Part shown: piece by piece, positions 26,274-54,786 of the stretch
Numbering within the stretch: the stretch's first letter is position 1
Layout: each line of letters begins with the position of its first letter
DNA from: Candidatus Parcubacteria bacterium
Lineage (GTDB): Bacteria; Patescibacteriota; Minisyncoccia; Phycocordibacterales; Phycocordibacteraceae
DNA length: 64,000 nucleotides
Assembly (NCBI GenBank): GCA_034666125.1
Contig: JAXDML010000009.1
Location: 975 to 64,974 of the forward strand
Direction: 5' to 3'
Position numbers and translations under genes: made by a program
Notes under the pieces: generated by a model
What the model saw: only the letters and a program-made list of their open reading frames with translations
Told to the model about the DNA's origin: nothing
The model's database searches: none

Positions 26274-26840
26274 CTATAGACCGCTCGCGATGATGCCGTT
26301 ATTTACCCTGGCGATATAGGTTTTTCGTCCGTTCTCGACCGCCGCAAGCGCCTCCTTCCCGTAGTCGCAGAATGTCCCCGGCATCTCGCCCGCGTCGAGT
26401 CCTAGGATGTGGAGCACGCGGAGAGCCGCCAGGCACTCCGCCGCGTCCTGTTCCTCCTCCGGAAGTTTCGCGAGCGCGTCCGCGAACGAGAGCGCTTCCG
26501 TGTAGAGACGCGGTTCGGCCTCCTCCCCATGCGACAGACGCTGCATGAGTTCCGAGACGCGGGCGAAGCGTTTGCGGCTCTCGAAGGAGAGTTCCTTCGA
26601 CCAGTCGCGGAGCGAAAGCGCCCCCGCGAGGCGCCAGCCATCCTTCGCACGTATGAGCGCGATGTTGCTTTCCATCAGGGTCTGGAGCCCGGCAGCCATC
26701 TTCGAGCCCGGCTTCCGGAGTCCTGCCGTGCGCGCCCGGATGATCCCGAAGTCCGGAGTCGCGAGCACGACCGAGGCGTCGTGCTCCTTCACGGGATGGC
26801 GCGCGAGCACGAGGACCTCCGTACGGTACTTATGCTGCAT
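26274..26840 (-). CDS. recO: RecO-like recombination mediator (short, 188 aa)
   Basis: N-terminal OB-fold pattern typical of RecO (EVLVLARHPVKEHDASVVLATPDFGIIRARTAGLRKPGSKMAAGLQ). No zinc finger. Confidence 0.55.
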   Translation of the reverse strand: MQHKYRTEVLVLARHPVKEHDASVVLATPDFGIIRARTAGLRKPGSKMAAGLQTLMESNIALIRAKDGWRLAGALSLRDWSKELSFESRKRFARVSELMQRLSHGEEAEPRLYTEALSFADALAKLPEEEQDAAECLAALRVLHILGLDAGEMPGTFCDYGKEALAAVENGRKTYIARVNNGIIASGL

Positions 26841-29800
26841 GGATATCGAACGCCACCCTCCCTATCGAAAGTTCGGCTGCATACGCTGCGTCGGCGGGTG
26901 CGTCGAAGGCGATATCCGTAACGCCCGGGAGGGTTCCGGTGAGGGTATCCTTCGCGGTAGCGCTCGCGCGTACGTGCGCGAGGTCCTTCGGCGAGAATCC
27001 TTCCTCCTTCCGCGCGTCGGCAAGCGCGCGCATGAATTCCCGCACGTCCCCTTCCCGCACGAGTTCCGGCGTGAGTTCCGTGTCGAGCGACGCTTCCGCA
27101 GCCCCGGTACGTATCTCCTTAACGTTCACTTCCTCCGCAAGAAGGGTCTGCAGTTCAATTGAAAGTTCTCCCGGTATCGACAGCGCCGCGAGCGGCTGAC
27201 GCACCTTGATGTTCGCCTTCTGGCGGAGCATGAGGCCTTCCGATGCAAAGGCTCGTGCGCGCTCCATGCCGAGCATAAGTCCCGTATCATCCGGCGTACC
27301 GCCGAACACTTTCTTCAAGAAGCCGACTCGCTCTACCTCAGGCCAATCAGCAAGGTGCACGCTTTCGGGGTCGTTCTCCCCTTTTACGCCCCGGTATACC
27401 TCATCGGCGACGAAGGGCATCACCGGGGCTATGACCTTTGAGAGCTCCAGGAGCACATGGCGGAGCGTATGAAGCGCCGCCTGCTTGTCGGTCTCGTGCG
27501 CGCTCTTCACGCGATCGCGCGACCGGCGCACGTACCACGTCGAGAGGTCGCTGACGAAGTCGCGCATCGGACGGACCGCACGGGGCATCTCGTACCGGTC
27601 GAAGGCGTCGGTCGCGGTGGCGGTGAGCTCCCTGAGACGCGCAAGTATCCACCGGTCGAGCGGATGTGCTGCGAAGTCGGGAGTCGCCGTATCGTCAAGG
27701 TCGTCCTTATAGAGGGCGTAGAACGCGTGGATATTGCGGAGCATGTTGACGGTCCGGTTCTGCGCCTCCTTTACCTCCTCGTCGCGGAACACCAGGTCCT
27801 CCGCCTGCATGACGACGCTTCCCATGAGGTAGAGGCGGAACGCGTCGGCGCCGTACGTGTCGAAGAGCGCATACACATCCGTATAGTTCCTCTTGCTCTT
27901 CGAGAGCTTCTCGCCATCGGAGCCGAGAATGTTGCCCGTCACCGCGACGTTCTTGAAAGGCGCCCGATCGAAGAGCTCGACCGACATCGCATGCATGTAA
28001 TAGAACCAGGCGCGCGTCTGCGCGATGTATTCGGAGACGAAATCGCCCGGCGAGCAGTTCTCGAACTCCGCGCGGTTCTCGAACGGGTAATGGTATTCAG
28101 CGAACGGCATGGATGCCGATTCCACCCAGCAGTCGACCACTTCTGGTATGCGCGTGAGGGGCCTTCCGTCCTCTGATTCGAGACGTACCTCGTCGATATA
28201 CGGGATGTGGAAGTCGAGCTCATAGTCGCGATTGTGCGGGATCGGGACGAAGTTCAGATCGACTACCTTCCCGCGCTCAGGATACGCGATGCGTACGGCG
28301 CGGTCCGGCAAGGCGCCCTCAACGACGGCATAAAGTGCCCACAGCGGCTCCCCGTGCGAGATGATCAGGATGTTTTTGCTCTGATATTTCTCCTCAAGCG
28401 AGTATAGAAAGTCGCCCACGCGCTTGCGCACATCATTGATGGACTCCCCTCCATCGGGACCTTGATAAAAGCGTGAAAGGTCGCCTTCCGGGGTATCAGG
28501 ATATATCTCAAAGAATTCCTTGAGGGGCCGTCCATTGAATACGCCGTGGTTGTATTCCGCTATAGCACCTTCCTCTATGACCTGCTGAGGTGCGAGTCCG
28601 AGCTCCTTCGCGACGATATCAGCCGTCTCGCGCGTGCGTACGTACGGCGAGGTGACGATAAGGTCGATATTCTTTTCCTTGAGACTTCCCGCTGCCTTTT
28701 TGACCTGTTCCTTCCCCTCTTCCGTAAGATGAACAGGATCGTGCGGGTCAGCGCTGATCAGGCTGTCGCGATTGCTATCTGCTTCTCCATGCCGGAGCGT
28801 ATAGTACGCATTACCGCTCTTCTTCCTACGAGCCTTCAACTCTTCGAGCGAGCCGATGACCGTTACGTTCCCGTCCGCGTCCTTCCATATGGGAAGCGGA
28901 CTCGCCCAGAACCGGTTGCGGGAGATGGTCCAGTCAGGAGCGCTTTCGAGATTGTGCTTGAAACGTCCGTGCTTAAGGTGCGCGGGCGACCAGGCGATCT
29001 TCTCGTTCTCCTCAAGAAGACGCTGCTTCACTGACTGGATGTCGATGAACCAGCTCGACACGGCGTTATATATAAGAGGAGTGCCGCAACGGTAGCAATG
29101 CGGGTACGAGTGGGTATGGCGTGCTTTCGCGAAAAGTAGCTCTCGTGTTTCGAGATCCGCCTTAATCTCAGTCTCTGCTTTCTTTATGTACTTGCCGCGC
29201 AGGAATTCCGGGGCATCGTCGTTATACGTCGCGTTCGGGTTCAAGAGCGGTATCATCGGCAATCCTTCCTTAAGCCCGAGCGCGTAGTCGTCCTCACCGT
29301 ATATGACCGCCGTATGCACGATGCCGGTGCCGTCCTCAGCCGTAACGAAAGCAGCTGAAAGGACTTCCCACTTCTTCCCGGCATGTGCCGCGACTTTCGG
29401 AATCTCATAGAGCGGCTCGTATGCAAGGCCTACGAGTTCGCTGCCCTTGAAGGATTTCTCCTTCGTTCCGAACTCGCCTGCAAGCTCCGCCGCTTCCGCG
29501 AAGTATTGGGTCGACATAATGTAGTGGCCTTTTGTGAGATGTAGGATCCCGCCTCCGACTTCCTGGTTACGGTCCGTACCAACACGTACAAGGACGTAGT
29601 CGATGTCTTGCCCGACGGCGAGCGCGACATTTCCGGGAAGCGTCCACGGCGTCGTCGTCCACGCAAGGAGAGAGGTATCCTCTGGCAGCTTGTCCGAACT
29701 CCTTATCTTGAACTTCGCCGTCACCGCTTCCTCGGTGATGTCCTTATACGTATTGTCCATCGCGATCTCGGCCTTGGCGAGCGGCGTTTCGCAGTGCGGA

Positions 29801-30342
29801 CAGTACATGAGCACTTTCCTGCCCTCGTACAGGCGCCCTTTCTTATGTATCTCCTTGAGGGCCCACCATACCGATTCGATGAACGCGCTGTCCATCGTCT
29901 TGTATGAGTTATCGAAATCGACGAATCGCCCGACACGCTCGACGTAGCGCTTCCAGTCGTGCACGTACTCGAGCACCTTCGAGCGCGCGATGTCATTGAA
30001 CTTCTCGACGCCGAGCTCGAGGATATCCTTCTTGGACTTGAGTCCGAGCTCCCGCTCTACGATGGACTCTATGGGAAGGCCGTGCGTATCCCACCCCCAT
30101 CGGCGACGCACGCGGTATCCGCGCATCGTCTTGTACCGCGGAACCACGTCCTTGGAAACCGAGGAAAGGAGCGAGCCCTGGTGGGGCAACCCCGTGGCGA
30201 ACGGCGGGCCGTCGTAGAAGACGAACTCGCCCTTAGGCGCGGGTTTCTCGAGCGTCTTTTCGAATATCTTGCTCTGCTGCCAGAACGCGAGCACTTCTTC
30301 CTCGCGCCGCGCTACGTCGGACTTTCCCCGTTCTTCGGTCAT
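26830..30342 (-). CDS. ileS: Isoleucyl-tRNA synthetase (eukaryote-like type) carrying an inserted histidine-phosphatase (RHG) domain
   Basis: PPFATGLPHQGS (HIGH-type), TPWT editing-domain motif, KLSKS, anticodon-binding domain. Residues about 510-700 form a complete histidine-phosphatase fold (RHGEADSN ... TSPYVRTRETA ... ISHGEPL). Confidence 0.9.
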   Translation of the reverse strand: MTEERGKSDVARREEEVLAFWQQSKIFEKTLEKPAPKGEFVFYDGPPFATGLPHQGSLLSSVSKDVVPRYKTMRGYRVRRRWGWDTHGLPIESIVERELGLKSKKDILELGVEKFNDIARSKVLEYVHDWKRYVERVGRFVDFDNSYKTMDSAFIESVWWALKEIHKKGRLYEGRKVLMYCPHCETPLAKAEIAMDNTYKDITEEAVTAKFKIRSSDKLPEDTSLLAWTTTPWTLPGNVALAVGQDIDYVLVRVGTDRNQEVGGGILHLTKGHYIMSTQYFAEAAELAGEFGTKEKSFKGSELVGLAYEPLYEIPKVAAHAGKKWEVLSAAFVTAEDGTGIVHTAVIYGEDDYALGLKEGLPMIPLLNPNATYNDDAPEFLRGKYIKKAETEIKADLETRELLFAKARHTHSYPHCYRCGTPLIYNAVSSWFIDIQSVKQRLLEENEKIAWSPAHLKHGRFKHNLESAPDWTISRNRFWASPLPIWKDADGNVTVIGSLEELKARRKKSGNAYYTLRHGEADSNRDSLISADPHDPVHLTEEGKEQVKKAAGSLKEKNIDLIVTSPYVRTRETADIVAKELGLAPQQVIEEGAIAEYNHGVFNGRPLKEFFEIYPDTPEGDLSRFYQGPDGGESINDVRKRVGDFLYSLEEKYQSKNILIISHGEPLWALYAVVEGALPDRAVRIAYPERGKVVDLNFVPIPHNRDYELDFHIPYIDEVRLESEDGRPLTRIPEVVDCWVESASMPFAEYHYPFENRAEFENCSPGDFVSEYIAQTRAWFYYMHAMSVELFDRAPFKNVAVTGNILGSDGEKLSKSKRNYTDVYALFDTYGADAFRLYLMGSVVMQAEDLVFRDEEVKEAQNRTVNMLRNIHAFYALYKDDLDDTATPDFAAHPLDRWILARLRELTATATDAFDRYEMPRAVRPMRDFVSDLSTWYVRRSRDRVKSAHETDKQAALHTLRHVLLELSKVIAPVMPFVADEVYRGVKGENDPESVHLADWPEVERVGFLKKVFGGTPDDTGLMLGMERARAFASEGLMLRQKANIKVRQPLAALSIPGELSIELQTLLAEEVNVKEIRTGAAEASLDTELTPELVREGDVREFMRALADARKEEGFSPKDLAHVRASATAKDTLTGTLPGVTDIAFDAPADAAYAAELSIGRVAFDIHAA

Positions 30343-32429: not shown

Positions 32430-33767
32430 CTAGGCGGGAATGGGATAGTCCTTCGTGAATTCGCGTATCTCGTCACGAATAACCCCTAATTCTTTATTAC
32501 TCTTCAGGGATTCATTAAATTCTTTAAGGTACGCAGTGCGTTCCTTCATATCGGTCGGCAGTCTGCGATCGCCTACGGCTTCTACGACGCGCGCTATCCA
32601 TTCGGCCACTTTTCCCATTTCCTTTTCCTTCATTCCGCGGGTAGTAAGGGCGGGGGTGCCGAGGCGGACTCCGCTCGGATAGAACGGTGATGCCGGATCC
32701 TTAGGCACGGTGTTCTTGTTCGCCGTCATTCCGGCCGCTTCCATCGCGTCGCTTACGAATACCCCGCCCCCGGGACCGAGTATCGGCGCGAGGTCCATAA
32801 GGAGGAGATGATTCTCCGTTCCGCCCGATACGAGCGTAAGCCCGTGCTTCTTTAGCCCTTCGGCGAGCGCCTTGGCGTTTGCCACTACCTGGTGGCCGTA
32901 CGCTTTGAACTCCTCGGTCGTCGCTTCCTTAAGCGCGATGGCGATGGCGGCAGTCTGGTGATCGTGCGGGCCGCCCTGGAGACCCGGGAATACGGCCTTG
33001 TCGAGCTTGGCCGCGAGGTCGGGATCCTTCGCCAGGCCGCGTTCGGTCGTCATGATGATGCCGCCGCGCGGGCCGCGAAGCGTCTTGTGGGTCGTGGTCG
33101 TGACTATGTGCGCATGCGGGACCGGGGACGGATGCGCGCCTGCCGCGATAAGGCCCGCGACGTGCGCGATGTCCGCCGCGAAGTATGCTCCGACCGAGTC
33201 CGCTATCTCTGCGAACTTCTCGTACTCATACAGGAACGGATATGCCGTCGCGCCTGCCCAGATAAGCTTCGGCGCATGCTCCTTCGCGAGCGCCCACACC
33301 TCGTCCATGTCGATGCGTCCGTCTTCCCGCACGTGGTACGGGACGCTGTTATAAAAGATGGCGGTCGCCGAGATCTTCCACCCGTGGGTCAGGTGCCCGC
33401 CGTCCGGAAGGTTGAGTCCCATGATCGTGTCGCCCGGATTCGCGGTCGCGAGGTACACCGCGAGGTTGGCGGGGCTTCCGGAGTACGGCTGCACGTTCGC
33501 GTGCGCGACGCCGAACAGCGACTTCGCGCGCTCGATCGCGAACGTCTCCACCTGATCGATGAACTCGTTGCCGTTGTAGTAGCGTTTGCCCGCGTACCCT
33601 TCCGAGTACTTGTTCGTGAGGATGCTGCCCATCGCCTCCATGACGGCTGCTGAGGCGTAGTTCTCGGATGGTATGAGCTCGAGCCCTTCAGCCTGTCGCT
33701 TCTCCTCGCCTACTAGGGCGTGATATATGTCCTCGTCTTCGTTCCTGATGTGAGCGTAGGGATCCAT
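32430..33767 (-). CDS. glyA: Serine hydroxymethyltransferase
   Basis: SHMT signature (TTTTHKTLRGPRGG), PLP lysine and overall conservation. Confidence 0.9.
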   Translation of the reverse strand: MDPYAHIRNEDEDIYHALVGEEKRQAEGLELIPSENYASAAVMEAMGSILTNKYSEGYAGKRYYNGNEFIDQVETFAIERAKSLFGVAHANVQPYSGSPANLAVYLATANPGDTIMGLNLPDGGHLTHGWKISATAIFYNSVPYHVREDGRIDMDEVWALAKEHAPKLIWAGATAYPFLYEYEKFAEIADSVGAYFAADIAHVAGLIAAGAHPSPVPHAHIVTTTTHKTLRGPRGGIIMTTERGLAKDPDLAAKLDKAVFPGLQGGPHDHQTAAIAIALKEATTEEFKAYGHQVVANAKALAEGLKKHGLTLVSGGTENHLLLMDLAPILGPGGGVFVSDAMEAAGMTANKNTVPKDPASPFYPSGVRLGTPALTTRGMKEKEMGKVAEWIARVVEAVGDRRLPTDMKERTAYLKEFNESLKSNKELGVIRDEIREFTKDYPIPA

Positions 33768-33782: not shown

Positions 33783-34475
33783 TCAGGGCTTGAGGAGCGC
33801 GAGTACGGCCTGCACGATCTCTCCGTGAATGTCCTCTCGCGCACGCATGGTGCCGTCCTTTTCGCAGTCGACGACCCTCCAGTTCGGCTCATGCGAGGCG
33901 AGCCACGTCGCGGTCTCATGGCTTCGTTCCAGATACGCCCGATCGTCCTCGACCGTATCCTTTTGCCCGTCATCAAGGGACGAGTTCTTCGATGCGCGTT
34001 TCTGTAAGAGGAGTTCGAGGCTTATGTCCAGGGGAACGCGCAAATAAAAGATGGCATCGGGACGCGGAACGCCGAGTACGCCGTGCTCGATGAGCTCGAG
34101 CCACGAGAGGAACCGCTTCCGTTCCTCGACGTCGGCGATCTTGCCGCCTTGGTGTATCTGATTGGCGCTCGTGAAGCGGTCGGCGACCACAACGGTTCCG
34201 GCTTCCAGGTGCTTCCGGATAGCGTCGGAGGATTCGAACCGGTCGAGGGCGTACAGCGTGGACGCGATCTTCGGGTCGAGGTTCACGAAGTCGCCGTGCC
34301 GGCCCGACAGGCATTCGCCGATGAGCGTGCCGAAGACGTTCCGGTCGTATGCAGGGAAATCAACGCGTTCGGCCGGCACGCCCTTCGCGTTCAGGTACTC
34401 CGCAAGAAGCCGCGACTGGGTCGCCTTTCCCGAACCGTCGTTGCCGTCGAAAACGAGTAGAAGTCCCTTGCGCAT
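33783..34475 (-). CDS. tmk: Thymidylate kinase
   Basis: P-loop DGNDGSGKATQ, DRF motif (ADRF), typical length. Confidence 0.85.
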   Translation of the reverse strand: MRKGLLLVFDGNDGSGKATQSRLLAEYLNAKGVPAERVDFPAYDRNVFGTLIGECLSGRHGDFVNLDPKIASTLYALDRFESSDAIRKHLEAGTVVVADRFTSANQIHQGGKIADVEERKRFLSWLELIEHGVLGVPRPDAIFYLRVPLDISLELLLQKRASKNSSLDDGQKDTVEDDRAYLERSHETATWLASHEPNWRVVDCEKDGTMRAREDIHGEIVQAVLALLKP

Positions 34476-34481
34476 GATTGG

Positions 34482-34910
34482 TTACAGGCCGGTCGTGCCG
34501 TACGCGCCGCGGTCGGGACTCCCCAGTGACGCCTCTTCCTTCCAGGTGACCCGGTCATACGGAAGCACGACGATCTGCGTCACGCGTTCTCCGCGCTTCA
34601 CCTCCACGGGCGCGTCGGTGAAGTTGTAGAGCGCCGCATGATACTCGTCCTTATCTCCCGCGTAATCCTCGTCAAGGATACCGATGCCGTTCGCGAGCAT
34701 GAGACCGCGCTTCTGCAGCGAGCTTCGTGCGGCCATGAGCACGAAGTGTCCGGGCGGCGGCTGTATGGCAACGTTCAACGGGAATACCGTTATGGATTTC
34801 GGGGCTACGGTCGCGGTCTCGCGCACGCACAGATCCATGGCGGAGGCGCCTGCCGTCTTGTACTCGGGGAGCGGCAGGTCCGCATCCATCCTCTTTATAG
34901 GCACCTTCAT
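34482..34910 (-). CDS. dut: dUTP diphosphatase
   Basis: dUTPase motifs (AGASAMDL, PGHFVLMAARSSL, GIGILDEDYAGD). Confidence 0.85.
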   Translation of the reverse strand: MKVPIKRMDADLPLPEYKTAGASAMDLCVRETATVAPKSITVFPLNVAIQPPPGHFVLMAARSSLQKRGLMLANGIGILDEDYAGDKDEYHAALYNFTDAPVEVKRGERVTQIVVLPYDRVTWKEEASLGSPDRGAYGTTGL

Positions 34911-34959: not shown

Positions 34960-35862
34960 ATGAAGAACCCCATCACGCTCACGAAAATCCACTCCCTGAA
35001 CGAGCTCAAGGACATGCTCCGGAAGATCTCCTACCGCGGCGTGTATACGTCGGACGGCGAGAAGGTCCTGCCGTACAAGGACGCCCGGTTCTCTATCACG
35101 ACGGTGTACCCGCAGTCGTCCCCAGGGTCTTCTCCGCACATACGGATCGGCAGGCGTCGGGAACCTCTCTTCACACCCCAGCCGACGATCTATGAGAACC
35201 AAACGAAGACGCTCGAGGAGGCGGACAAGTTCCTCCTGGCGCACGACATGAAGATGAGCAGCTTGCGGGGAGCGGTCGAATACGCCTGGGAGGGGCGTGG
35301 CGAATTCCATATGCTCCCCCCGGTCATCGAGAAGCACTCCTACTACCTGAAGAACGGGTACCTCGACCTCCCGCACCTGCTCAAGCGGTTCAAGGGTCTT
35401 CGCGTAAAAGATGCCGCGGGGAACCTGCATCCGCTCTCGGAGCGTACCCTACGCTCCTTCTATATCGACGAGGTGAGCAGCATCGACCATTTGGATGTCT
35501 TCAACTCGAACGTACCGATCATCAACTACGGCCTCGGACATAACGGGGTGTTCACGTTCTATATCGTCTGCGACGGAGCCCATCGCCTCGACTACGTGCT
35601 CGAGAAGATCAAGCAGCCCATGAACGTCCTCCTGGTAGAGCCGGCGACCGACGAGGAGACCCTGTATCCCTATTACGCCTTCCCGGTCCCCTTCCGCCCG
35701 TCGCTGCGGCTCTCGAGCAAGCAGTCGGAGAAGATGTACCATCGGCTGGAACGCGACAAGATCCATCTTTTCAACGACTTCATACGGAAGGTCCTGCATT
35801 ACGACTGGGAGTCGGCCGGACTCAAGGTGAGCAAGCTGCGGTCTAACGTGGAGATCTATTGA
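34960..35862 (+). CDS. Hypothetical protein (300 aa), first gene of the putative nucleotide-modification island
   Basis: Start at MKNPI. Normal composition, while the overlapping antisense ORF is R/L-rich. No family recognised; contains GHNGVFTFYIVCDGAHR. Confidence 0.5.
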   Translation: MKNPITLTKIHSLNELKDMLRKISYRGVYTSDGEKVLPYKDARFSITTVYPQSSPGSSPHIRIGRRREPLFTPQPTIYENQTKTLEEADKFLLAHDMKMSSLRGAVEYAWEGRGEFHMLPPVIEKHSYYLKNGYLDLPHLLKRFKGLRVKDAAGNLHPLSERTLRSFYIDEVSSIDHLDVFNSNVPIINYGLGHNGVFTFYIVCDGAHRLDYVLEKIKQPMNVLLVEPATDEETLYPYYAFPVPFRPSLRLSSKQSEKMYHRLERDKIHLFNDFIRKVLHYDWESAGLKVSKLRSNVEIY

Positions 35863-35871: not shown

Positions 35872-36750
35872 ATGGATGCTCCTGCCGTCGATTCCGCTCT
35901 CGCCCGGTCGCTCGAGCTCTCCCTGCCGCCCGGCACGCAGGCAGTGACTGGTTCGGTCGCCGTCTCAAGGGACGGAACCTGCTATTCAGCAGGCTCAGTC
36001 GGGTCGCAGACCCATCTGCTCGACATCCCTTCCGAACTCGCCGCGCTCGTGCGGGCCGTGCAGCATAACGACGTACATATCAAGGAGGTCCGCACAGTTA
36101 CGACCGATCCCCTCGCGTCGGTCTCGCCGCTGGTGCTGAAGATACTGGCTGACCATGGCACGCGCATCGGCACCGCCATGCGATATGTCGTACAGGATAC
36201 GTCCGGGAAGATCCTGTTCGAGAGCGCCGACGTGCGCGAGCTTCTCCCGTGGTACACCGAACCGGGTACGGCTCTCGCTTCGCTAATGCAACGCACGGCG
36301 GGACCTGCGAAAAGCCGGCTCGACGAAGCGTCCGGACTGTCCATCGAGTTGCAACTACGGTCGTGGGCGCTGAGGGGCCGCGAGCGGAACTTCCCGACGT
36401 ACGACGCCGCTTCCGGGTATGGCGCGGCGGTCCTTACGAAGACCGGCGACATCTACTATGGTGGGCAATACTCGACTTATGAGCACCGCCTCGGCGTGCA
36501 TGCGGAGATGGGCGTGCTCCTGAACGCGCTCATGGACGGTGTGCGTGACATCACCCACATCGGGGTTGCCTCCTCCAAATTCCCCGACACTCCGTGCAGT
36601 CCGTGCGGATGCTGCCGCCAGCTCATGGCCGAACTCTCGCTGAAGTGCGGACTCTCGCCTGTCGTATATCTTTTCGCGTCAGAGAACGAGGAATTCGCGT
36701 TATATACCCTGGACGAGCTGTTACCTGCACAATGGACAAACAAGAAATGA
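35872..36750 (+). CDS. Tandem-duplicated cytidine/deoxycytidine deaminase-fold protein (degenerate N-terminal repeat, catalytic C-terminal repeat)
   Basis: C-terminal half: GAAVLTKTGDIYYG ... HAEMGVLLNAL ... SPCGCCRQL ... ELLP matches the cytidine deaminase H/C/C zinc motif. N-terminal half has the same fold pattern but the zinc ligands are replaced (IPSE, SPLVLKIL). Confidence 0.75.
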   Translation: MDAPAVDSALARSLELSLPPGTQAVTGSVAVSRDGTCYSAGSVGSQTHLLDIPSELAALVRAVQHNDVHIKEVRTVTTDPLASVSPLVLKILADHGTRIGTAMRYVVQDTSGKILFESADVRELLPWYTEPGTALASLMQRTAGPAKSRLDEASGLSIELQLRSWALRGRERNFPTYDAASGYGAAVLTKTGDIYYGGQYSTYEHRLGVHAEMGVLLNALMDGVRDITHIGVASSKFPDTPCSPCGCCRQLMAELSLKCGLSPVVYLFASENEEFALYTLDELLPAQWTNKK

Positions 36751-39152
36751 CTACCACAGCACGTCCCCAATTCCCCATAGTTGATGCGTTACTGCTCACG
36801 CCGCCCGAGGCCGCCGATGGCCACATCGGCATCTGCACGAATACTGCGGCGCCGGGACAGGTGTTCAACGACATCTCCGAGGAGAACCGTCCTGCGGTCT
36901 CGGTCCTGGGCCCTCTGATCGTGAGCCGCGACGGGACCGAACGGATGATCCTGAATGCGCTTGTGCATCCGACCGTCACGTATCTCATCCTCTTTTCCGA
37001 GGAGTCGCTCACCTTCTCTCCGAGCACCAATCTGCTGCTTGCCCTGATGCACGGTCTCGACGGCACGCGCGAGGGAAACTACATCGCCAAGGGAGAAGCC
37101 GCCTCGGCCCACCTCCCGAACCTTTCCAAGGACATCGTGGACCTGTTCCGCGAGAACATCACCGTGCTGCCGCTCTTCATGTCGCAGAACAAGCAGAGCG
37201 CGGCGATTACTGCCGAATATCTTGAATGGCTCGGGTCCCGCGTGCCGGAAGACGTCCTCTCCTTCCTTAAGGAGGCGAACTCGAAGGATAAGAAATACTA
37301 CGATGCGCTGAACGGGCTCATCACGCTCCTCAAGTCGGTACCGCAAAAGAAGAAGGCTATGGTCGAGCTCGATCCCAAGGACTTCCAGCAGCTGCAACCA
37401 CCCAAGATAGCCATCCCGGAAGACCACGCCCCCTCGCCAGCCCTCTTCCGCGTCACGCTCGAAGACAACCTCCTTCGTCTCGACATCGCGGTCGGCGGCA
37501 AATCGTACTTCATGCGCGGAGATGACGACTTCCGCATCGAATATTCCCTGATGAAGTTCCTGGCCGAACGCAAAGAATTGCTTACGCCGCGCGAACAGCT
37601 CCTTATCGGCGCCGAGCTCAACCGCCTCAACGTCGAACGGACTGCCGGCATCGTTTCTGAGCCATTCATAGTGCCAAGTGACGTCGCAGGCACTGAAGAG
37701 ATACTCCTTGAGCCGGCTACGGATCTTATCCCTGACCAGGAGTATTACTACAAGATAGGATTGAAGGACGACGAAGTCTCGGTGATGTGCATGGCCTTCG
37801 ACATCTGCACCGAGGTCTTCGACCTGCGCTCGAAGGGCGCGACCGGGCTCTTCGACTGGCTGGCCGAGAAGGACCGCTTCCAGGTGTACGAGATGGATAT
37901 CCTGCACCGCATGGACGTGGGTGGGCAGATCGGGCGAGCCGTCATCGCCGCGCGCTTCGGCTACTCGTTCGTACAGGACTTCTCGAGCATTTTCAAGGTG
38001 AACACTGAGACCCTGCCGCTCCTGGCCGCCGAAGGCGACTCGTTCCTCGACGTGCACCGCTCTACGCTGCTCAAGGTCTATACCGAAGGCATCACCGAGG
38101 AACACGGGGACGCACGCAAAGGCCTGTCGCGCACCGCGATCGCGCTGGCGATCTATCGTAACGCCAGGCAGGCCTTTGACCGTCTTCCCGAGATCTACAA
38201 GCAGGGCGACCTCTCGACCGAGGAGATGCGCGCGGCATATAAGGCGCAGCTCCTGCGCCTCGATCATGACGGTGACTACAGCTACGGCGAGCGCACGCGG
38301 GTCCATTTCGGTTTCGATCAGCTCGAGAGGGCGATCTCGATACTGCAAAAGGATCCTTCCCGACCTACGCTCATCCAGCGATTCGATCCGACCGTGGACA
38401 TGGGCGCGTCGCTCGATCCGGATACCGGACGGGCGGTCTATACGCATGATCCGTGCCTGACCCACGATGTCCTCTTTTGTATAGACGGGAAACTGCATTC
38501 GTTCCATATCGCTCGCGCGCATAACCTGGCGAACGCGTACCCTGAGAACGTCTTCGGTCTCTTCGATGCATACGCGAGTACCGTACGGGAGGCTCTCAAG
38601 CTCGATTCCGGCGACCTGTACATGCTCTCGAGCCGCGGGAACATCCTTCTTCTCACGGAAGAACAGCGGGTGCGCAAGATCATCGCCGAACCTTCCAAGC
38701 CTATCGGCGAGGTCGACCGCGCGAGCGGGCCGAGACTCTTCGGGGAGAACGTGCGCACCGCAGCAGGGATGGGCGGCGTATCCTACAGCACGGCCCCGCT
38801 TGAGGAAGTTCCCCTGTATGCGCATCCGGTCATCGAGCGCGTGAAAGCCTTCGAAGGCGTCGATACCCTTGCGCGCGCGACCGGCTATCTTAAGCAGAAG
38901 GGCGGCAGTCACAACAATCCGATCCTCACCACGTACCAGGCCGGGCACTCCGATCCGCAGGCAGACCATCTCGCGTTCTTTCAGGCGAATGTCTTCGGCG
39001 AGAAGCTCCACGCGACCGCTGTCTTTACCAATCATGAGCCCGTGCCGGCAGACGACCTGAAGCTCGTTTCGGCCCTTGCCACGACGTACGCGAAGGTCCT
39101 GGACGTCCCGCTCGGGAATGGAAGTATCTTTTACATCAATGGAAACGCCTGA
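36747..39152 (+). CDS. Large fusion protein: about 375-aa domain of unknown function fused to a divergent thymidylate-synthase/pyrimidine-hydroxymethylase (ThyA-fold) domain
   Basis: ATGA start/stop overlap with the preceding gene. ThyA-like blocks FGYSFVQDF, DQLERAISILQKDPSRPTLIQRFDP (compare DQI..[16 protein letters not shown]), DPCL catalytic Cys (compare PCH), HIARAHNLANAYPENVFGL (compare YQRS.D..LG.PFNIASY). The antisense 748-aa ORF is rejected on composition. Confidence 0.6.
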   Translation: MTTTARPQFPIVDALLLTPPEAADGHIGICTNTAAPGQVFNDISEENRPAVSVLGPLIVSRDGTERMILNALVHPTVTYLILFSEESLTFSPSTNLLLALMHGLDGTREGNYIAKGEAASAHLPNLSKDIVDLFRENITVLPLFMSQNKQSAAITAEYLEWLGSRVPEDVLSFLKEANSKDKKYYDALNGLITLLKSVPQKKKAMVELDPKDFQQLQPPKIAIPEDHAPSPALFRVTLEDNLLRLDIAVGGKSYFMRGDDDFRIEYSLMKFLAERKELLTPREQLLIGAELNRLNVERTAGIVSEPFIVPSDVAGTEEILLEPATDLIPDQEYYYKIGLKDDEVSVMCMAFDICTEVFDLRSKGATGLFDWLAEKDRFQVYEMDILHRMDVGGQIGRAVIAARFGYSFVQDFSSIFKVNTETLPLLAAEGDSFLDVHRSTLLKVYTEGITEEHGDARKGLSRTAIALAIYRNARQAFDRLPEIYKQGDLSTEEMRAAYKAQLLRLDHDGDYSYGERTRVHFGFDQLERAISILQKDPSRPTLIQRFDPTVDMGASLDPDTGRAVYTHDPCLTHDVLFCIDGKLHSFHIARAHNLANAYPENVFGLFDAYASTVREALKLDSGDLYMLSSRGNILLLTEEQRVRKIIAEPSKPIGEVDRASGPRLFGENVRTAAGMGGVSYSTAPLEEVPLYAHPVIERVKAFEGVDTLARATGYLKQKGGSHNNPILTTYQAGHSDPQADHLAFFQANVFGEKLHATAVFTNHEPVPADDLKLVSALATTYAKVLDVPLGNGSIFYINGNA

Positions 39153-39828
39153 CTATCTGAACGACATACGCGTGGTCGGCTTCGATCTCGATCAGACGCT
39201 GTACCCGAAGTCCCCGGTCATCGACGAGATGATCCAGTCCTACCTGTACCTGAAGATCGCCGAGCACATGGGCGTAAGCCTGGCCGAGGCCGAGAAGCTT
39301 TTCAAGGGCCGGTACCGCGGCGGGGCGGGCATGAGCGGCCGGGAGACCCTCGAAGACCTCGGTCTTCCGAACGCGTCGGACCTCGTGCAAGAGGCGCTTG
39401 AGCACGCCGACCTTACCTCGGTACTCGTGCCCGACCAGGAGACGAACCTCTTACTGGCTCGCGCGCGGGAGGCTTATGAAGGCATGGATCTCATTACGGG
39501 CTCTAACCTGGAGCAGACTCGAAAGAAGCTCGTCGCGCTGGATATAGGAATGGACGCCTTTTCACATGTCATCACTCAGGATGACGCATGGAAACTGAAC
39601 GGCGACGCGTACCGGCTTTGGCTTTCGTACTATCCGCATCTGGAACCGCATCAGTTCCTGTACGTCGGCGACCGCGCGCGAAGCGATCATGAGGTACCGG
39701 CCTCCCTCGGCATACGCACCTGCCTCGTGTACGTAGAGTCCCCGGACGTCGCCTTGCCTGCCCTGCAGCTCGTGAATCTTCGGGACCTCCGTGACATGCT
39801 TCCGCTGAAAGGTCCGACAGCCAACTAG
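39139..39828 (+). CDS. HAD-superfamily phosphatase
   Basis: Motif I VGFDLDQTLY (DxDxT) and motif IV YVGDRARSD. Overlaps the upstream stop by 14 nt. Confidence 0.65.
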   Translation: METPDYLNDIRVVGFDLDQTLYPKSPVIDEMIQSYLYLKIAEHMGVSLAEAEKLFKGRYRGGAGMSGRETLEDLGLPNASDLVQEALEHADLTSVLVPDQETNLLLARAREAYEGMDLITGSNLEQTRKKLVALDIGMDAFSHVITQDDAWKLNGDAYRLWLSYYPHLEPHQFLYVGDRARSDHEVPASLGIRTCLVYVESPDVALPALQLVNLRDLRDMLPLKGPTAN

Positions 39829-39925
39829 CCCGTCAGGCCGCGATTCTGCTTTCTCCACCCCTGTGGATAGGTGCCTCCGGATCCGCTATACTTCCAGTAG
39901 ATGCAACTTGAACCTGGAGGGTTCC

Positions 39926-40744
39926 ATGGAACTCAACGCACACGATGGCTTGGCTCAAGCCGAACTGTGGCCGGATGTTCTCTCCTTCCATGGGAGAACG
40001 TACGACCACGCAGACGCGGCGACGGCGATCCTCTCGCGGGAAACGCCGAAGCCTATCGGCATCCGGATCCAAGGCCTCCGGCCAGGAGACGTTAAGGTCG
40101 CGAAGAACGGCCTGATCCGTTTCAACTCCGAGGTTTCTCCGGAACAGCAGATCGCGTGGGCGCTTAACGTGCCGCGCGATCCAGAATTCGACGAGGAGGA
40201 CGACGGAATCATCCTGAAGGACGAGAACGACAGGAAGAATTACCTCCATTATCGGCCGGACCTGGAGAAGCTGCTGCTTGCGCTCAGGGGCATCACGCCC
40301 ACGAGGTGGCAGCGGGAGTGGTTCGCTGCGTGCAATCGCATCCGTACCGCGTGCGTGACCCATCTGATCGGTTTGGCACGCCAGATGGATGTCGTCCGGC
40401 CCGGCTATGGTTTCGAAGAACGGGTCACGGATTACTCGGACCAGCACGTGGTCCGGGTACTGAACTACGTGCCGCGGGAGGGGATCATCGCGAAGCCCCA
40501 CACGGACCGCTGCGCGATCACCTTCCATCTGGCAGAATCCGCGCCAGGTCTGTGCGCGTACAACGTCTACGAACGCCGGCCGTACGCAACGCCGAAGACG
40601 CCGTGCGCGCTTTGCTTCTCCGGCCAACAGCTGGAGCGGGTCACGCGCGGCGCAGTTCCCGCCGTCTATCACGAAGTGGAAAACAACACTCCGGGCAGGA
40701 TGCGCTGGGCACTCGTCTTCTTCGGGAAGATGCGTCCGAAATGA
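39926..40744 (+). CDS. 2-oxoglutarate/Fe(II)-dependent dioxygenase
   Basis: HxD...H facial triad (KPHTDRCAITFHL ... YHEV) and the 2OG-binding Arg (RMRWALVFF). Confidence 0.7.
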   Translation: MELNAHDGLAQAELWPDVLSFHGRTYDHADAATAILSRETPKPIGIRIQGLRPGDVKVAKNGLIRFNSEVSPEQQIAWALNVPRDPEFDEEDDGIILKDENDRKNYLHYRPDLEKLLLALRGITPTRWQREWFAACNRIRTACVTHLIGLARQMDVVRPGYGFEERVTDYSDQHVVRVLNYVPREGIIAKPHTDRCAITFHLAESAPGLCAYNVYERRPYATPKTPCALCFSGQQLERVTRGAVPAVYHEVENNTPGRMRWALVFFGKMRPK

Positions 40745-45652: not shown

Positions 45653-46312
45653 TTAGTTTCCCTGGAACGTGCCGAGCATGCGCAGGAGCGCGCTGTGCTC
45701 CGGCAGGTCGGCGACGACGAGATCCGGATTCATCCACTCGGTCACGTCGTGCTCGACGATGTCGAACCGGAGCACGTCGTTCTCGCGTACGAGGAAGTAC
45801 GAACTCTGTACCAAGGCCTCGAACCGCTCGATCACGGTACTGCGGTACGACTTCCCTCCCGCGTTCACCGTCGTGAAGCGAGTCAGGTCCTCGGCCTGCA
45901 TATCGACGGGCTGGTACCGGGTATTCGCGAGGATTACCTGCTCGGCGGTCTGTCCTGCGGGAATCGGGTACCGCTTCACGTGTATGGTATGCGGCGCGTT
46001 CTCGGAAAGGCTGGGCTTCTCGAAGATCCGGAGCGTTTCCTGGTCGGGAGCGCCCGAAAGGAGTTGGGTATAGCCGGAAGGGACGGCGAACGAGACGCCG
46101 GCTTCGGGAATCTCCACGTTCGGGAAGGCGCACGGAGCGAAGCTGCAGTCCGGGCCTGAACGCCCGACCGACGAACCGTCCGGACAGATACGCGCCTCCA
46201 TCGTGCACGCCGTTACGTCCGTCTGATCCGGCTGCTCCATGGTGTACCGATACACGAATCCTCCGAGTCCGAGAACGACGATAAGCACCAATAAGAGAGC
46301 GAGTTGTTTCAT
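45653..46312 (-). CDS. Exported hypothetical protein
   Basis: Signal/anchor MKQLALLLVLIVVLGLGGF. Confidence 0.5.
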   Translation of the reverse strand: MKQLALLLVLIVVLGLGGFVYRYTMEQPDQTDVTACTMEARICPDGSSVGRSGPDCSFAPCAFPNVEIPEAGVSFAVPSGYTQLLSGAPDQETLRIFEKPSLSENAPHTIHVKRYPIPAGQTAEQVILANTRYQPVDMQAEDLTRFTTVNAGGKSYRSTVIERFEALVQSSYFLVRENDVLRFDIVEHDVTEWMNPDLVVADLPEHSALLRMLGTFQGN

Positions 46313-46722: not shown

Positions 46723-46735
46723 ATCTAGTTACCGG

Positions 46736-46809
46736 GGCGACCTGTGGGGCTCGAACCCACGACCGTCGGTACCACAAACCGATGCTCTACCAGCTGAGCT
46801 AAGGCCGCC
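46736..46809 (-). tRNA. tRNA-His (anticodon GTG) with a genomically encoded G-1; CCA not encoded
   Basis: Manual folding gives an extra 5' G pairing with discriminator C73, a GCTCAGCTGGTAGAGC D-arm, the anticodon loop TTGTGGT and a GGTTCGAGCCC T-arm. Confidence 0.8.
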
Positions 46810-46841
46810 ATGCACGTGCGATTTATAACACGAAATACGCG

Positions 46842-47411
46842 CTACTTGTAGCGCGGCGTCTCGCGCGGAATGCCCGAGCTCTCGTTCGCGAAGCGTGCGA
46901 GTGCGAAAAGGAGCGATGACAAGCGGTTCAGATAGGCTTTCGTATTCGGAGATATCTTCCGCAGACCAAGCTCCGCGACGCCGATGACCCGCCGTTCCGC
47001 GCGACGCGAGATCGTGCGCGCCACATCGAGCGTTGTCGAGAGCTCCGTGCCTCCGGCGACCGTGAAGTTCGTGATGGGCGGCATGAGCTTCTCGAGCGTG
47101 TTGATGATGAGTTCCGACTGCGTTACCTTCGGCTTGGCTACTTTCTTGGGCGCACCCGCTACCTCCGCCTGCACGATGAACAACGTCTGCTGGATATCGG
47201 CAAGGATATCCGACGTTCTGCGCGTACGCGCCCCGAGCGGCACCATCGGGTCGGGTCCGCCTGCGGCCCGCACCTTCGCGAGGCCGAGATACGAGTTCAG
47301 CTCGTCGAGCGTGCCGAGCGCCTCGGGCAGCTCGGACGACTTCGAGATGCGCTGCTGGTCGCAGCCGAAGGTCTTCGTCGTCCCGCCGTCGCCTTTGCCG
47401 GTATAGAGCAT
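46842..47411 (-). CDS. PduO-type ATP:cob(I)alamin adenosyltransferase
   Basis: N-terminal YTGKGDGGTT...DELNSYLG signature. Confidence 0.8.
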   Translation of the reverse strand: MLYTGKGDGGTTKTFGCDQQRISKSSELPEALGTLDELNSYLGLAKVRAAGGPDPMVPLGARTRRTSDILADIQQTLFIVQAEVAGAPKKVAKPKVTQSELIINTLEKLMPPITNFTVAGGTELSTTLDVARTISRRAERRVIGVAELGLRKISPNTKAYLNRLSSLLFALARFANESSGIPRETPRYK

Positions 47412-47482
47412 GGGAGAAGTATAGCAACGTGCGGCCCTTTCTTTTTGGCCGTCCTTTTCGTATAGTAAGCGGGTTCATGCCT

Positions 47483-47567
47483 GCCCAGGTGTTGAAATTG
47501 GTAGACAAGCATCCTTGAGGTGGATGTGCCGCAAGGCGTGGAGGTTCAAGTCCTCTCCTGGGCACCA
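47483..47567 (+). tRNA. tRNA-Leu (anticodon GAG), long variable arm, CCA encoded
   Basis: Acceptor GCCCAGG/CCTGGGC, anticodon loop TTGAGGT, variable arm GTGCCGCAAGGCGTG, T-arm GGTTCAAGTCC. Confidence 0.85.
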
Positions 47568-53076: not shown

Positions 53077-53346
53077 TTATATGATGCGGAAATCGTCGTA
53101 GTCCCCTTCTGAAGGGACGCACGAGTGCGTTACATCGGTGACGTTCGCGAGCTCGGGACCTTCCTTGAGATGCTCTATAAGAAGGTCGAGCTTCTCGCGT
53201 GGTCCTTCGGCAATTACATGAACGGTGCCGTCCGGAAGATTCTGCGCGGTGCCCGCAAGGTCGAGCGCTTTGGCCTGGCGCGTAACGAAGTCGCGGAACC
53301 ATACGCCCTGCACCTTTCCCGACACGACCGCCTCGAGCCGCTCCAT
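53077..53346 (-). CDS. acyP: Acylphosphatase
   Basis: VSGKVQGVWFRDFV signature; 89 aa. Confidence 0.8.
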   Translation of the reverse strand: MERLEAVVSGKVQGVWFRDFVTRQAKALDLAGTAQNLPDGTVHVIAEGPREKLDLLIEHLKEGPELANVTDVTHSCVPSEGDYDDFRII

Positions 53347-53347
53347 G

Positions 53348-54727: not shown

Positions 54728-54786
54728 GGAGGCAGTATAACGCAGCGTCTTCAAAAAACGCGCCGTTTGGGGTATCGTGCAGCTAT

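Follow-up and report, generated by a model that had tools for sequence, protein, structure and literature searches.

The window, a 64,000-nucleotide stretch of DNA from a tiny symbiotic Candidatus Parcubacteria bacterium, encodes an 801-aa multidomain protein of the thymidylate synthase (ThyA) family (hereafter BIG; 36747..39152, + strand). Judged by its profile matches and alignments, BIG carries a genuine, divergent ThyA fold, and it is the third gene of a conserved four-gene cassette. In our view the best explanation, held at about even confidence and resting on sequence comparison, is that BIG is a pterin-dependent, pseudo-dimeric ThyA-type enzyme that would convert a uracil nucleotide to dTMP within a pyrimidine module. 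What is new here is the conserved four-gene context, as the domain fusions themselves already occur in archaea.

The BIG reading frame translates without interruption and all homologues are ~800 aa long, in agreement with the 801-aa protein of an initial annotation of this DNA. Its domain order is MtrA-(PterinBD')-PterinBD-ThyA-ThyA', and an AlphaFold model built from 35 input sequences reached a pLDDT of 84.6 and a pTM of 0.78. When invariance was scored over 46 CPR and DPANN sequences, 97 residues proved identical in all bacterial and archaeal members, and among them are the nucleophile Cys and the Arg, Asn, and Tyr that bind the substrate.

BIG contains a methanogen-type ThyA domain with a changed active site

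The catalytic ThyA-fold domain (residues 427-650; 38025..38696, +) was recognized through profile and hhalign matches. Specifically, residues 434-607 match the NCBIfam family TIGR03283 (E 1.6e-12, 47.4 bits; cut-off 174.55), and residues 420-660 align with short archaeal ThyA (hhalign 99.7%, E 3.4e-25, 201 columns), which upholds the divergent ThyA fold proposed initially. BIG derives from this short, methanogen-type ThyA lineage, yet its score lies so far below the TIGR03283 cut-off that, though homologous, it is not an equivalog. The hhalign match to E. coli ThyA was only 63%, and a Pfam search of BIG gave no match to PF00303 even at E<=10; the homologues P0076 and P0114 have a precomputed PF00303 match. 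Four of the five ThyA blocks listed in the initial annotation are colinear with E. coli ThyA in the hhalign alignment, in which DQLERAISILQKDPSRPTLIQRFDP pairs with a 21-residue E. coli block, DPC570L with PC146H, ARAHN with QR166SCD, and PEN601 with PFN177. The remaining block, FGYSFVQDF (residues 404-412), had been misaligned with FGHQMRFNL: it falls in the PterinBD-like domain, ThyA begins at ~427, and the Arg21 equivalent is R462. The domain boundaries given there were ~45 residues off.

The predicted nucleophile, Cys570 (codon TGC, 38454..38456, +; alignment and codon check), lies in an invariant D-P-C-L motif. It corresponds to Cys146 of E. coli ThyA, and R462, Y513, R590, and N601 correspond to Arg21, Tyr94, Arg166, and Asn177; all five residues are invariant in 46/46 bacterial and archaeal sequences, so the catalytic Cys and the uracil-specifying Asn are retained as first proposed. 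It is an established rule that Asn at the N177 position confers uracil specificity, and that Asp confers cytosine specificity in dCMP/CMP hydroxymethylases and hydroxylases (PMC13326640). The cytosine-type Asp was not found in BIG, where N601 is invariant. Of the features that define the ThyA superfamily, BIG has the alpha/beta fold and a Pro-Cys nucleophile colinear with the Arg166 and Asn177 equivalents; the residues with which a bona fide TS contacts the pterin, the 3'-OH, and the phosphate (Asp169, His207, Tyr209, and the Arg126/Arg127 pair) are missing. They are replaced invariantly at Asp169 (Asn593), His207 (Asn632), and Tyr209 (Leu634), as are Ser167 (Ala591) and Phe176 (Glu600), and the RR loop has decayed, with its second Arg lost and R539 conserved in less than 70% of sequences. 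Because canonical residues are invariantly replaced, the sugar and pterin contacts of BIG are unlike those of any characterized TS, and because the replaced positions are themselves invariant, they point to a selected, different active site. The change of His to Leu in the PCH motif, also reported initially, is real and carries no special meaning: loss of this His is the rule in the ThyA clade of BIG, and 59/59 remote relatives have L, I, M, or some further non-His residue after Cys.

Accessory domains and a degenerate second ThyA half flank the catalytic domain

The first ~375 residues, previously described as novel and without a family, instead comprise an MtrA-like domain and PterinBD-DUF4346-like module(s) known from ~480-aa archaeal ThyA fusions. 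The MtrA-like Rossmann domain (residues 25-160; 36819..37226, +) resembles MtrA in sequence and adopts its Rossmann-like fold, while its scores stay below the MtrA cut-offs (PF04208, 16.6 vs 25 bits; NF002126, 28.2 vs 161; TIGR01111, 13.1 vs 249). The corrinoid subunit MtrA of methyl-H4MPT:CoM methyltransferase (5laa, 8q3v) uses His84 as its cobalt ligand and Glu54 as the hydrogen-bond partner of this His (PMC4915002). Both are missing in BIG, in which the sequence alignment places an invariant Phe90 and a Ser60 at these positions. BIG also differs from MtrA in having no membrane anchor and in the fusion of this domain to ThyA. Residues R61, D62, G63, E65, R66, M67, N70, and H74 are invariant in the BIG domain, and Asn70 is the equivalent of the tail-binding Asn64 of MtrA.

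Downstream of this domain, residues 325-418 (37719..38000, +) form a PterinBD-DUF4346-like domain that matches the C-terminal domains of PF14251-positive archaeal fusions (hhalign 96.7-97%, E 1e-10 to 4e-10). A Pfam search of BIG returned no direct PF14251 match; the paralogues P0152 and P0146 match this ~86-residue domain directly, at the position equivalent to BIG 325-418. With moderate confidence, residues ~228-304 (37428..37658, +) probably represent a degenerate first copy: they match the C-terminal PterinBD of archaeal MtrA-ThyA fusions (hhalign 75.8%, E 2.3e-5), and in the AlphaFold model they form three strands followed by two helices. Pfam and NCBIfam profile searches found no DHFR or kinase domain fused to BIG, which disposes of the bifunctional alternative raised in the initial annotation, and a tblastn search with E. 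coli FolA gave no match either in the window or across 58 loci.

The last ~150 residues had likewise been left without a family. We found that residues 696-799 (38832..39143, +) are a truncated, degenerate second ThyA core, which carries DPQ instead of DPC and hence has no catalytic Cys. This half aligns with short archaeal ThyA (hhalign 95.6%, E 1.3e-8) and with the ThyA domain of BIG itself (hhalign E 0.0014), a BLASTP cross-match adds support, and a tandem-ThyA relative exists (P0168). Whereas the RR loop of the ThyA domain proper has decayed, the corresponding Arg126/Arg127 loop position of the C-terminal half is occupied by the invariant H722, N723, and N724. Canonical ThyA is normally an obligate homodimer, and the sequence suggests that this internal degenerate half is an intramolecular substitute for the dimer partner. 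With the half in place of a second subunit, BIG would be a single-chain pseudo-dimer that has one live active site, into which the H722-N723-N724 loop may enter as Arg126'/Arg127' do in ThyA.

BIG differs from its closest relatives in active site and architecture

The closest family is the methanogen-type short archaeal ThyA of TIGR03283 (~200 aa, MJ0757-like), with which BIG has in common the minimal ThyA fold, the motifs P-C-[L/M] without His, Y-[ST]-Y-G-x-R, R-x-x-[DN], and P-x-N-x-[FY]-G, and a W/F-D-P strand after the RR loop. In BIG, however, Asp169 of TIGR03283 is Asn, S-A-H-I-Y (His207, Tyr209) reads S-R-G-N-I-L, the second RR-loop Arg is gone, and ThyA forms part of an 801-aa chain that contains four additional modules. 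The hosts also differ, as BIG occurs in Patescibacteria and DPANN archaea and TIGR03283 ThyA in methanogens.

All three domain families of BIG are found in archaeal MtrA+ThyA+PterinBD-DUF4346 fusions of ~420-540 aa (P0160, P0165, P0170), which are common in archaea but uncharacterized. One such protein (~480 aa) passes the TIGR03283 cut-off, and one cluster is labelled Thermoprotei. The archaeal fusions that we read have Phe at the His84 position as BIG does, and the ThyA domains form one clade. In contrast to BIG, these proteins are ordered MtrA-ThyA-PterinBD and retain Asp169, His207, and Tyr209, they lack the extra degenerate ThyA half, and the one locus examined is without the BIG cassette partners (ParB-CE/CDA/HAD). 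Distant paralogues of ~810-900 aa (P0146, P0152, P0155, P0156, P0158, P0175) have a BIG-like order of MtrA-PterinBD-ThyA-C-terminal ThyA-like and the PCL motif, but are only ~24-30% identical to BIG and keep Asp169 (RAHD/RSHD). At the one paralogue locus examined (L059), a ParB-CE gene lies directly upstream of P0152, and we saw neither a CDA-like gene nor a HAD gene.

BIG also departs from canonical ThyA (E. coli, Brucella 3ix6), including DHFR-TS, whose Asp169, His147, His207, Tyr209, and Phe176 are all unconserved in BIG. The phage flavin-dependent dCMP 5-hydroxylase AfhB (9iqu, 9iqc), T4 dCMP hydroxymethylase, and the CMP hydroxymethylase MilA have Asp at N177 where BIG has Asn, are 9-18% identical to BIG over structural alignments, carry no MtrA or PterinBD domains, and come from phage or antibiotic-pathway contexts.

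BIG is part of a conserved four-gene cassette

The unusual functional context that had been suspected for a ThyA domain in a protein three times the normal size is borne out by this cassette. Its first gene (34960..35862, +) encodes a 300-aa ParB-CE-like (ParB/Srx-fold) protein with an invariant C-D-G-x-H-R-x-D motif and ~50% identity between bacterial and archaeal members; its fold matches include the small-molecule kinases SerK and SbnI (Z <=4.8). The second (35872..36750, +) encodes a two-lobed, 292-aa cytidine-deaminase (CDA)-like protein, identified by profile and structure matches, with a degenerate N-terminal lobe and a C-terminal lobe that bears invariant H210-x-E212 and C245-G-x-C248-R-Q; it matches the B. 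subtilis CDA 1ux1 (E 6e-12), and its family is that of the nucleoside deaminases (CDA), not that of the dCMP deaminases. The fourth (39139..39828, +) encodes a HAD phosphatase with a conserved DxDxT motif and a weak likeness to pyrimidine 5'-nucleotidase (TIGR01993, E 6.6e-10, below cut-off). A codon check showed that the ATG of BIG and the stop codon of the preceding gene overlap as ATGA, and the inferred HAD start codon gives a 14-nt overlap with the end of BIG; these overlaps suggest translational coupling. The cassette is conserved in 35/35 and 37/38 bacterial loci and in 9/10 and 11/11 archaeal loci, and gene fusions occur within it (CDA-like+BIG, P0126; BIG+HAD, P0127).

Next to the cassette lie a divergently transcribed dUTPase (34482..34910, -; Pfam PF00692, E 6.9e-19), a dTMP kinase (Tmk; 33783..34475, -), and a serine hydroxymethyltransferase (SHMT; 32430..33767, -; Pfam PF00464, E 7e-157). 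SHMT supplies 5,10-methylene-tetrahydrofolate and dUTPase supplies dUMP. Each of these two genes is found within 6 kb of the cassette in 14/42 bacterial loci, and Tmk adjoins it at the window locus only. Overall, the cassette is surrounded by housekeeping genes (ArgRS, L11, NusG), and no glycosyltransferase, N-glycosidase, or other tailoring genes accompany it. Only ~53 of 185,579 GTDB species, all Patescibacteria and DPANN, carry the BIG gene, so it is not a TS used by CPR bacteria at large. The family was not found in IMG/VR, and PADLOC gave no matches. Our search for canonical ThyA and ThyX covered the window and 6-kb flanks.

Proposed function and alternatives

We propose that Cys570 attacks a uracil nucleotide, most likely dUMP, at C6. 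Arg462, Arg590, and Asn601 would hold the nucleotide, and the activated C5 would then accept a one-carbon unit from a methylene-tetrahydropterin to give dTMP. In bacteria with BIG the donor is probably 5,10-methylene-THF from the neighbouring SHMT. The MtrA-like domain, which has no His to bind cobalt, may serve together with the PterinBD-DUF4346-like module(s) for accessory pterin handling; equivalent domains are fused to archaeal ThyA. The ParB/Srx-fold member would be a putative nucleotide-binding or phosphotransfer enzyme. Together, the four genes could allow ultra-small Patescibacteria and DPANN archaea, which are poor in biosynthesis, to make thymidylate from salvaged (deoxy)nucleosides and nucleotides of cytosine or uracil. 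The nearby dUTPase and SHMT, and the adjacent Tmk in the window, lend dTMP synthesis contextual support. Against it count the invariant replacement of several ThyA residues, the scores far below curated cut-offs, the small number of species with the gene, and the tightly linked ParB/Srx-fold enzyme, for which classical dTMP synthesis has no use. A bolder and rather doubtful extension is that the cassette is an unrecognized, self-contained pyrimidine pathway exchanged between Patescibacteria and DPANN, pairing a pseudo-dimeric ThyA with an obligatory ParB/Srx phosphotransferase in a nucleoside-level thymidylate route or in the making of a non-canonical C5-modified pyrimidine. If true, the chemistry or organization of the cassette would be unprecedented for any ThyA-fold enzyme.

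Among the rivals to dTMP synthesis, the least improbable, which we nevertheless consider unlikely, is that BIG makes not dTMP but 5-hydroxymethyl-(d)UMP or some other pyrimidine modified at C5, in the manner of dUMP/dCMP hydroxymethylases, MilA, and BcmA. The ParB/Srx, deaminase, and HAD proteins would then tailor it by phosphorylation, deamination, and dephosphorylation into a modified end product, which may be a nucleoside, a cofactor, or a DNA base. The initial annotation had raised a hydroxymethylase or a 'different acceptor', which we consider possible but do not favour. This rival gains from the invariant changes at residues (N593, N632, L634, E600) whose counterparts in true TS contact the pterin and the sugar 3'-OH, from a ParB/Srx partner retained even at the distant L059 locus and with the small-molecule kinases SerK and SbnI among its fold matches, and from a sparse, domain-crossing distribution typical of accessory modules. 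Moreover, the polar H567 and D568 sit just before Cys, and in hydroxymethylases the L143 position is taken by Asp or Glu (PMC13326640). Among the archaeal-type sequences that we read, however, the −3 position also frequently carries Asp, Glu, or Ser (P0160, P0165, P0170, P0179, P0192, and P0202), so that the L143 rule may not transfer to the BIG clade. The neighbours dUTPase, SHMT, and Tmk also speak for TS substrate supply and dTMP use, and the housekeeping surroundings, the absence from viral contigs and defence-system models, and the lack of further tailoring genes fit poorly with a modification pathway.

Less probable again is a pathway at the nucleoside level, with the four enzymes acting one after another: HAD would dephosphorylate dCMP to dC, and the CDA-like protein would deaminate dC to dU. 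The substrate that BIG then methylates would be deoxyuridine, or one that it binds without the phosphate clamp of four arginines usual in ThyA, and a ParB/Srx kinase would finally make dTMP. The nucleoside family of the deaminase, the 5'-nucleotidase likeness of HAD, the fusions that link CDA-like, BIG, and HAD, the His-Asn-Asn in the loop expected to provide Arg126'/Arg127', and the small-molecule kinases within the ParB/Srx fold are all consistent with such a route. Yet two of the four arginines that bind phosphate, Arg462 and Arg590, are invariant, no ThyA-fold enzyme is known to use a nucleoside, and a kinase activity of the ParB-CE-like protein is inferred purely from those low-scoring fold matches. 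We give very little weight to a corrinoid on the MtrA-like domain, which would make BIG a cobamide-dependent methyltransferase that passes a methyl group from methyl-Co(III) to the Cys-activated C5. The clear likeness to MtrA in sequence and fold and the invariant Asn70 favour it, but the cobalt ligand and its partner are replaced (Phe90, also found in the archaeal MtrA-ThyA fusions read, and Ser60), the PterinBD domains and the SHMT neighbour favour a pterin donor, and CPR and DPANN organisms are not known to make cobamides. Least credible of all is a catalytically dead ThyA relic that acts as a scaffold or regulator: BIG does fall under every curated family cut-off and has lost several canonical residues, but its nucleophile and substrate-binding residues are among those invariant across bacteria and archaea, and the replaced positions are just as constant.

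BIG contains a divergent ThyA-fold domain

The gene for the 801-aa multidomain ThyA-family protein, here called BIG, is an uninterrupted 801-codon open reading frame (ORF) at window 36747-39152 (+), in a region of about 60% GC. An alternative in-frame GTG start upstream would extend the product to 852 aa; we chose the ATG at 36747 because it overlaps the stop codon of the preceding gene (ATGA) and because its homologues, more than 120 in number, share a length of about 800 aa and align from residue ~8. P0001, a 'hypothetical protein' from a Candidatus Parcubacteria MAG, is 100% identical to BIG. An antisense ORF of 748 aa at 36789-39035 (-), opposite nearly all of BIG, was dismissed as most probably non-coding and an artefact of 60% GC facing a strongly conserved gene.

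The resemblance to ThyA proposed in the initial annotation proved to be real. TIGR03283, the NCBIfam model of methanogen-type thymidylate synthase, matches BIG residues 434-607 (E 1.6e-12) with 47 bits, far below its equivalog cut-off of 174.6; a Foldseek search with a confident AlphaFold model built from 35 homologues (pLDDT 84.6, pTM 0.78) supported the resemblance; and domain-wise profile comparison with hhalign aligned residues 420-660 with eleven stand-alone short archaeal ThyA proteins over 201 colinear columns (99.7%, E 3.4e-25). The short archaeal sequences match E. coli ThyA at 97.4%, and the BIG domain does so directly at 63.4% (E 6.8e-5), so that both comparisons of this domain exceed the 50% profile probability named beforehand as the floor for the resemblance. 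All three approaches were required to make the link, as a PDB profile search with the full-length BIG alignment returned only MtrA and no ThyA. Four of the five sequence blocks originally aligned to ThyA are correct, and the fifth, FGYSFVQDF against FGHQMRFNL, falls outside the ThyA domain, which starts at about residue 427.

We mapped BIG onto E. coli ThyA by sequence alignment, in which R462, Y513, C570, L571, R590, N593, N601, N632 and L634 correspond to Arg21, Tyr94, Cys146, His147, Arg166, Asp169, Asn177, His207 and Tyr209, respectively. All nine are invariant across 46 aligned sequences from bacteria and archaea, and the invariant set includes the nucleophile, two phosphate-binding arginines, the general-base tyrosine and the uracil-specifying asparagine. 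The loss of the histidine that follows the catalytic cysteine, pointed out in the initial annotation, is not distinctive: in the 59 remote relatives whose motif could be recognised this residue is Leu (50), Ile (4), Met (2) or some other residue (3), and never His.

Flanking domains and a second ThyA core

The flanks of this domain, first described as novel, have MtrA-like, PterinBD-DUF4346-like and second ThyA-core homologies; a known DHFR or kinase fusion was set aside, as BIG has no such domain. We compared the MtrA-like domain with MtrA in a gap-free alignment, taking residue roles from the literature (PMC4915002). The cobalt ligand of MtrA, His84, and its partner Glu54 (PMC4915002) are replaced in BIG by the invariant Phe90 and by Ser60, respectively, and the G-x-E-[KR]-M-I-x-N motif and MtrA Asn64 (Asn70 in BIG) are kept. 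MtrA-style cobamide binding by this domain is therefore disfavoured, both His84 and Glu54 being missing.

When 1.84 billion representatives were searched exhaustively with a profile, only ~8 clusters of the full-length BIG family at 50% identity were recovered, as well as a distant family of ~810-900 aa with the same layout. Many proteins of ~420-540 aa combine MtrA, thymidylate synthase (TIGR03283, PF00303) and PterinBD-DUF4346 (PF14251) according to NCBIfam and Pfam, and one cluster of these fusions includes a member labelled as a Thermoprotei archaeon. BIG residues 325-418 form a PterinBD-like domain that matches the PterinBD domain of these fusions (96.7-97%, E 1e-10 to 4e-10), and residues ~228-304 are probably a degenerate extra PterinBD copy (75.8%, E 2e-5). 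A 522-aa MtrA and ThyA fusion from the cluster with the Thermoprotei-labelled member (P0169 cluster; L061/L062 6001-7569) has a resolvase, a PD-(D/E)XK protein and numerous small genes lacking annotation as neighbours, in a region that resembles an archaeal virus or mobile element.

BIG residues 696-799 form a truncated second ThyA core, which hhalign matched both to short archaeal ThyA (95.6%, E 1.3e-8) and to BIG's own ThyA domain (E 0.0014). The catalytic Cys of this copy is Gln (D-P-Q), and an invariant His722-Asn723-Asn724 occupies the position of the Arg126-Arg127 loop, which in ThyA extends into the active site of the partner subunit. The corresponding loop of the catalytic domain has decayed, with the second Arg lost and the first less than 70% conserved. 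A decayed loop in the live domain together with an invariant loop in the dead copy is the pattern expected of an intramolecular pseudo-dimer with one live site, which BIG may thus represent. Covalent ThyA duplication does occur in BIG's clade, because the archaeal-type relative P0168 (786 aa) is a covalent ThyA dimer, with two tandem methanogen-type ThyA domains (~203-349 and 515-683) beside MtrA-like and PterinBD domains.

BIG belongs to a conserved four-gene cassette

The cassette consists of four genes, closely packed and overlapping, of which BIG is the third. It is preceded by genes for a 300-aa ParB-CE-like protein (34960-35862; Pfam PF24392, 26.7 bits against a cut-off of 23) and a two-lobed, 292-aa cytidine-deaminase-like (CDA-like) protein (35872-36750), whose C-terminal lobe matches B. 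subtilis CDA (E 6e-12) and in which H-x-E and C-G-x-C-R-Q are invariant. The fourth gene (~39139-39828) encodes a HAD phosphatase that weakly matches TIGR01993, a pyrimidine 5'-nucleotidase model. Genes for dUTPase (34482-34910), dTMP kinase and SHMT are transcribed divergently from the cassette. A 2OG-Fe(II) oxygenase gene (39863-40744 (+), 293 aa, PF03171 E 1e-5) separates the HAD gene from rplK/nusG; none of the 58 related loci has a counterpart, the best PDB match (E 0.013) is not a close one, and the gene seems to be a lineage-specific insertion beside the pyrimidine module.

The model of the ParB-CE-like protein (pLDDT 78.5) gave weak fold matches (Z ≤4.8), the top eight of which all have the ParB/Srx fold: sulfiredoxin, PadC, a ParB-N nuclease, the hypothetical protein Atu1540, the serine kinases SbnI and SerK, and KorB. 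The protein also has an invariant C-D-G-x-H-R-x-D motif of ParB/Srx type, and may plausibly have a nucleotide-binding or phosphotransfer role. PDB sequence searches returned only weak matches to MRE11 and GppA, which we regard as spurious.

Scanning one genome per GTDB species, we found 53 BIG loci, 42 labelled Patescibacteria-type (Parcubacteria, Kaiser-, Zambryski-, Nomura-, Vogel- and Sungii-bacteria and others, a few with implausible bin labels) and 11 labelled archaea, nearly all DPANN (Woesearchaeota, Nanoarchaeia and Iainarchaeum). Where sequence was available, the ParB-CE-like and CDA-like genes lie upstream of BIG in 35/35 bacterial and 9/10 archaeal loci, and the HAD gene lies downstream in 37/38 and 11/11, respectively; gene order is permuted in one archaeal locus. 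Archaeal BIG members have 39-46% full-length identity, the ParB-CE-like proteins of bacteria and archaea are ~50% identical, and the whole cassette shows 40-50% identity between Patescibacteria and DPANN archaea. Genes for dUTPase and SHMT each occur within 6 kb in 14/42 bacterial loci. Two metagenomic proteins, P0126 (1111 aa; CDA-like and BIG) and P0127 (981 aa; BIG and HAD), are candidate fusions that would lend Rosetta-stone support to a physical or functional complex. Three cassette contigs (L038, L042 and L049) carry the MAG titles 'Gammaproteobacteria' or 'Methanosarcinales', which are probably binning or labelling errors, because the contigs agree with the Patescibacteria or DPANN versions in sequence and in gene order. 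In one Nanoarchaeia locus (L043), the CDA-like gene and BIG are separated by a SMODS-associated NUDIX (Sa_NUDIX) gene on the other strand, at 5176-5883 (-), and L048 and L054 have similar gaps of 700-850 bp. A distant paralogue, P0152 (877 aa, MtrA-PterinBD-ThyA, 27% identity; L059/L060 2586-6729), is encoded directly downstream of a 245-aa Parb-CE gene at a locus that lacks the CDA-like and HAD genes, which suggests that ParB-CE and the large ThyA-like protein are the ancestral pair.

The co-occurrence of ParB-like, deaminase, ThyA-like and 2OG-oxygenase genes raised the idea of a phage DNA-hypermodification or defence module. This reading is unsupported: the PADLOC defence-system models gave no match, no relatives were found in IMG/VR, the sole PHROG match is a weak one to thymidylate synthase, the flanks are housekeeping genes, and none of the 58 other loci has the oxygenase.

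Proposed function

The neighbourhood of BIG includes genes that make dUMP and methylene-THF and a gene that consumes dTMP. We consider it very probable that BIG catalyses a Cys-dependent C5 transfer with a uracil nucleotide as substrate, and give even chances to dTMP as its product. Cys570 would attack C6 of dUMP, and C5 would receive a methylene from a tetrahydropterin that the MtrA-like and PterinBD modules may bind or position, with the C-terminal half-domain standing in for the second subunit. The cassette could then turn salvaged cytosine and uracil (deoxy)nucleosides and nucleotides into thymidylate in cells with minimal biosynthesis. No canonical ThyA or ThyX was found in the 64-kb window or in the 6-kb flanks of the loci. 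BIG is not a general CPR thymidylate synthase, because only ~53 GTDB species carry the gene.

The main rival, which we hold to be a real if lesser possibility, is that BIG makes a different C5 product. BIG carries invariant substitutions at the positions of Asp169, His207, Tyr209 and Phe176, two polar residues (His567 and Asp568) precede the Cys, and the ParB/Srx partner is obligatory while having no place in classical dTMP synthesis; set against these are the neighbouring genes for dUMP, methylene-THF and dTMP metabolism. A nucleoside-level pathway, with all four cassette enzymes acting in series, is a more speculative variant that we judge rather unlikely. Cobamide-dependent methyl transfer, for which the MtrA-like domain might speak, is highly improbable given the residues that this domain has lost, and it is scarcely credible that BIG, with its invariant nucleophile, is a dead scaffold.

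Relation to known enzymes

By fold and motifs BIG is a member of the ThyA superfamily, nearest to methanogen-type ThyA, but it does not reach the curated cut-offs for TIGR03283, PF00303 or any MtrA model; several residues that define bona fide thymidylate synthases are missing, as are those that define corrinoid-binding MtrA. The fusion of MtrA, ThyA and PterinBD is not new, archaeal examples being already visible in databases. Our literature searches (the fusion, DUF4346/PterinBD, ParB-CE and CPR thymidylate synthase) found no description of the archaeal fusions, the BIG family or the cassette. What appears to be new is an 800-aa architecture that includes a dead half of ThyA, a changed set of active-site residues, and a four-gene module that is strictly conserved, includes a ParB/Srx-fold enzyme and seems confined to, and common to, Patescibacteria and DPANN archaea.

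Thymidylate synthesis is essential and a classic drug target, for which only the ThyA and ThyX enzyme families are known. Archaeal ThyA-type enzymes are almost uncharacterised (PMC9931769). The BIG family would add a single-chain pseudo-dimer answer for an obligate-dimer enzyme, a fixed partnership of ThyA with MtrA-like and PterinBD domains that bears on the use of non-folate or scavenged pterins, and a strictly conserved, unexplained coupling with a ParB/Srx-fold enzyme. Patescibacteria and DPANN are two radiations of tiny symbionts for which nucleotide salvage is obligatory, and a cassette common to both therefore offers a testable handle on DNA-precursor synthesis and inter-domain gene transfer.

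Other genes in the window

Four further ORFs, at 24679-26199 (-) (506 aa), 45653-46312 (-) (219 aa), 46729-47565 (-) (278 aa) and 53225-54796 (+) (523 aa), matched no Pfam family at E≤1e-4. The catalytic domain of the isoleucyl-tRNA synthetase at 26830-30342 (-) (1170 aa) is interrupted midway by a complete histidine-phosphatase (His_Phos_1) domain (residues 514-687), and the same insertion is present in the 1174-aa orthologue of a distant relative (L001).
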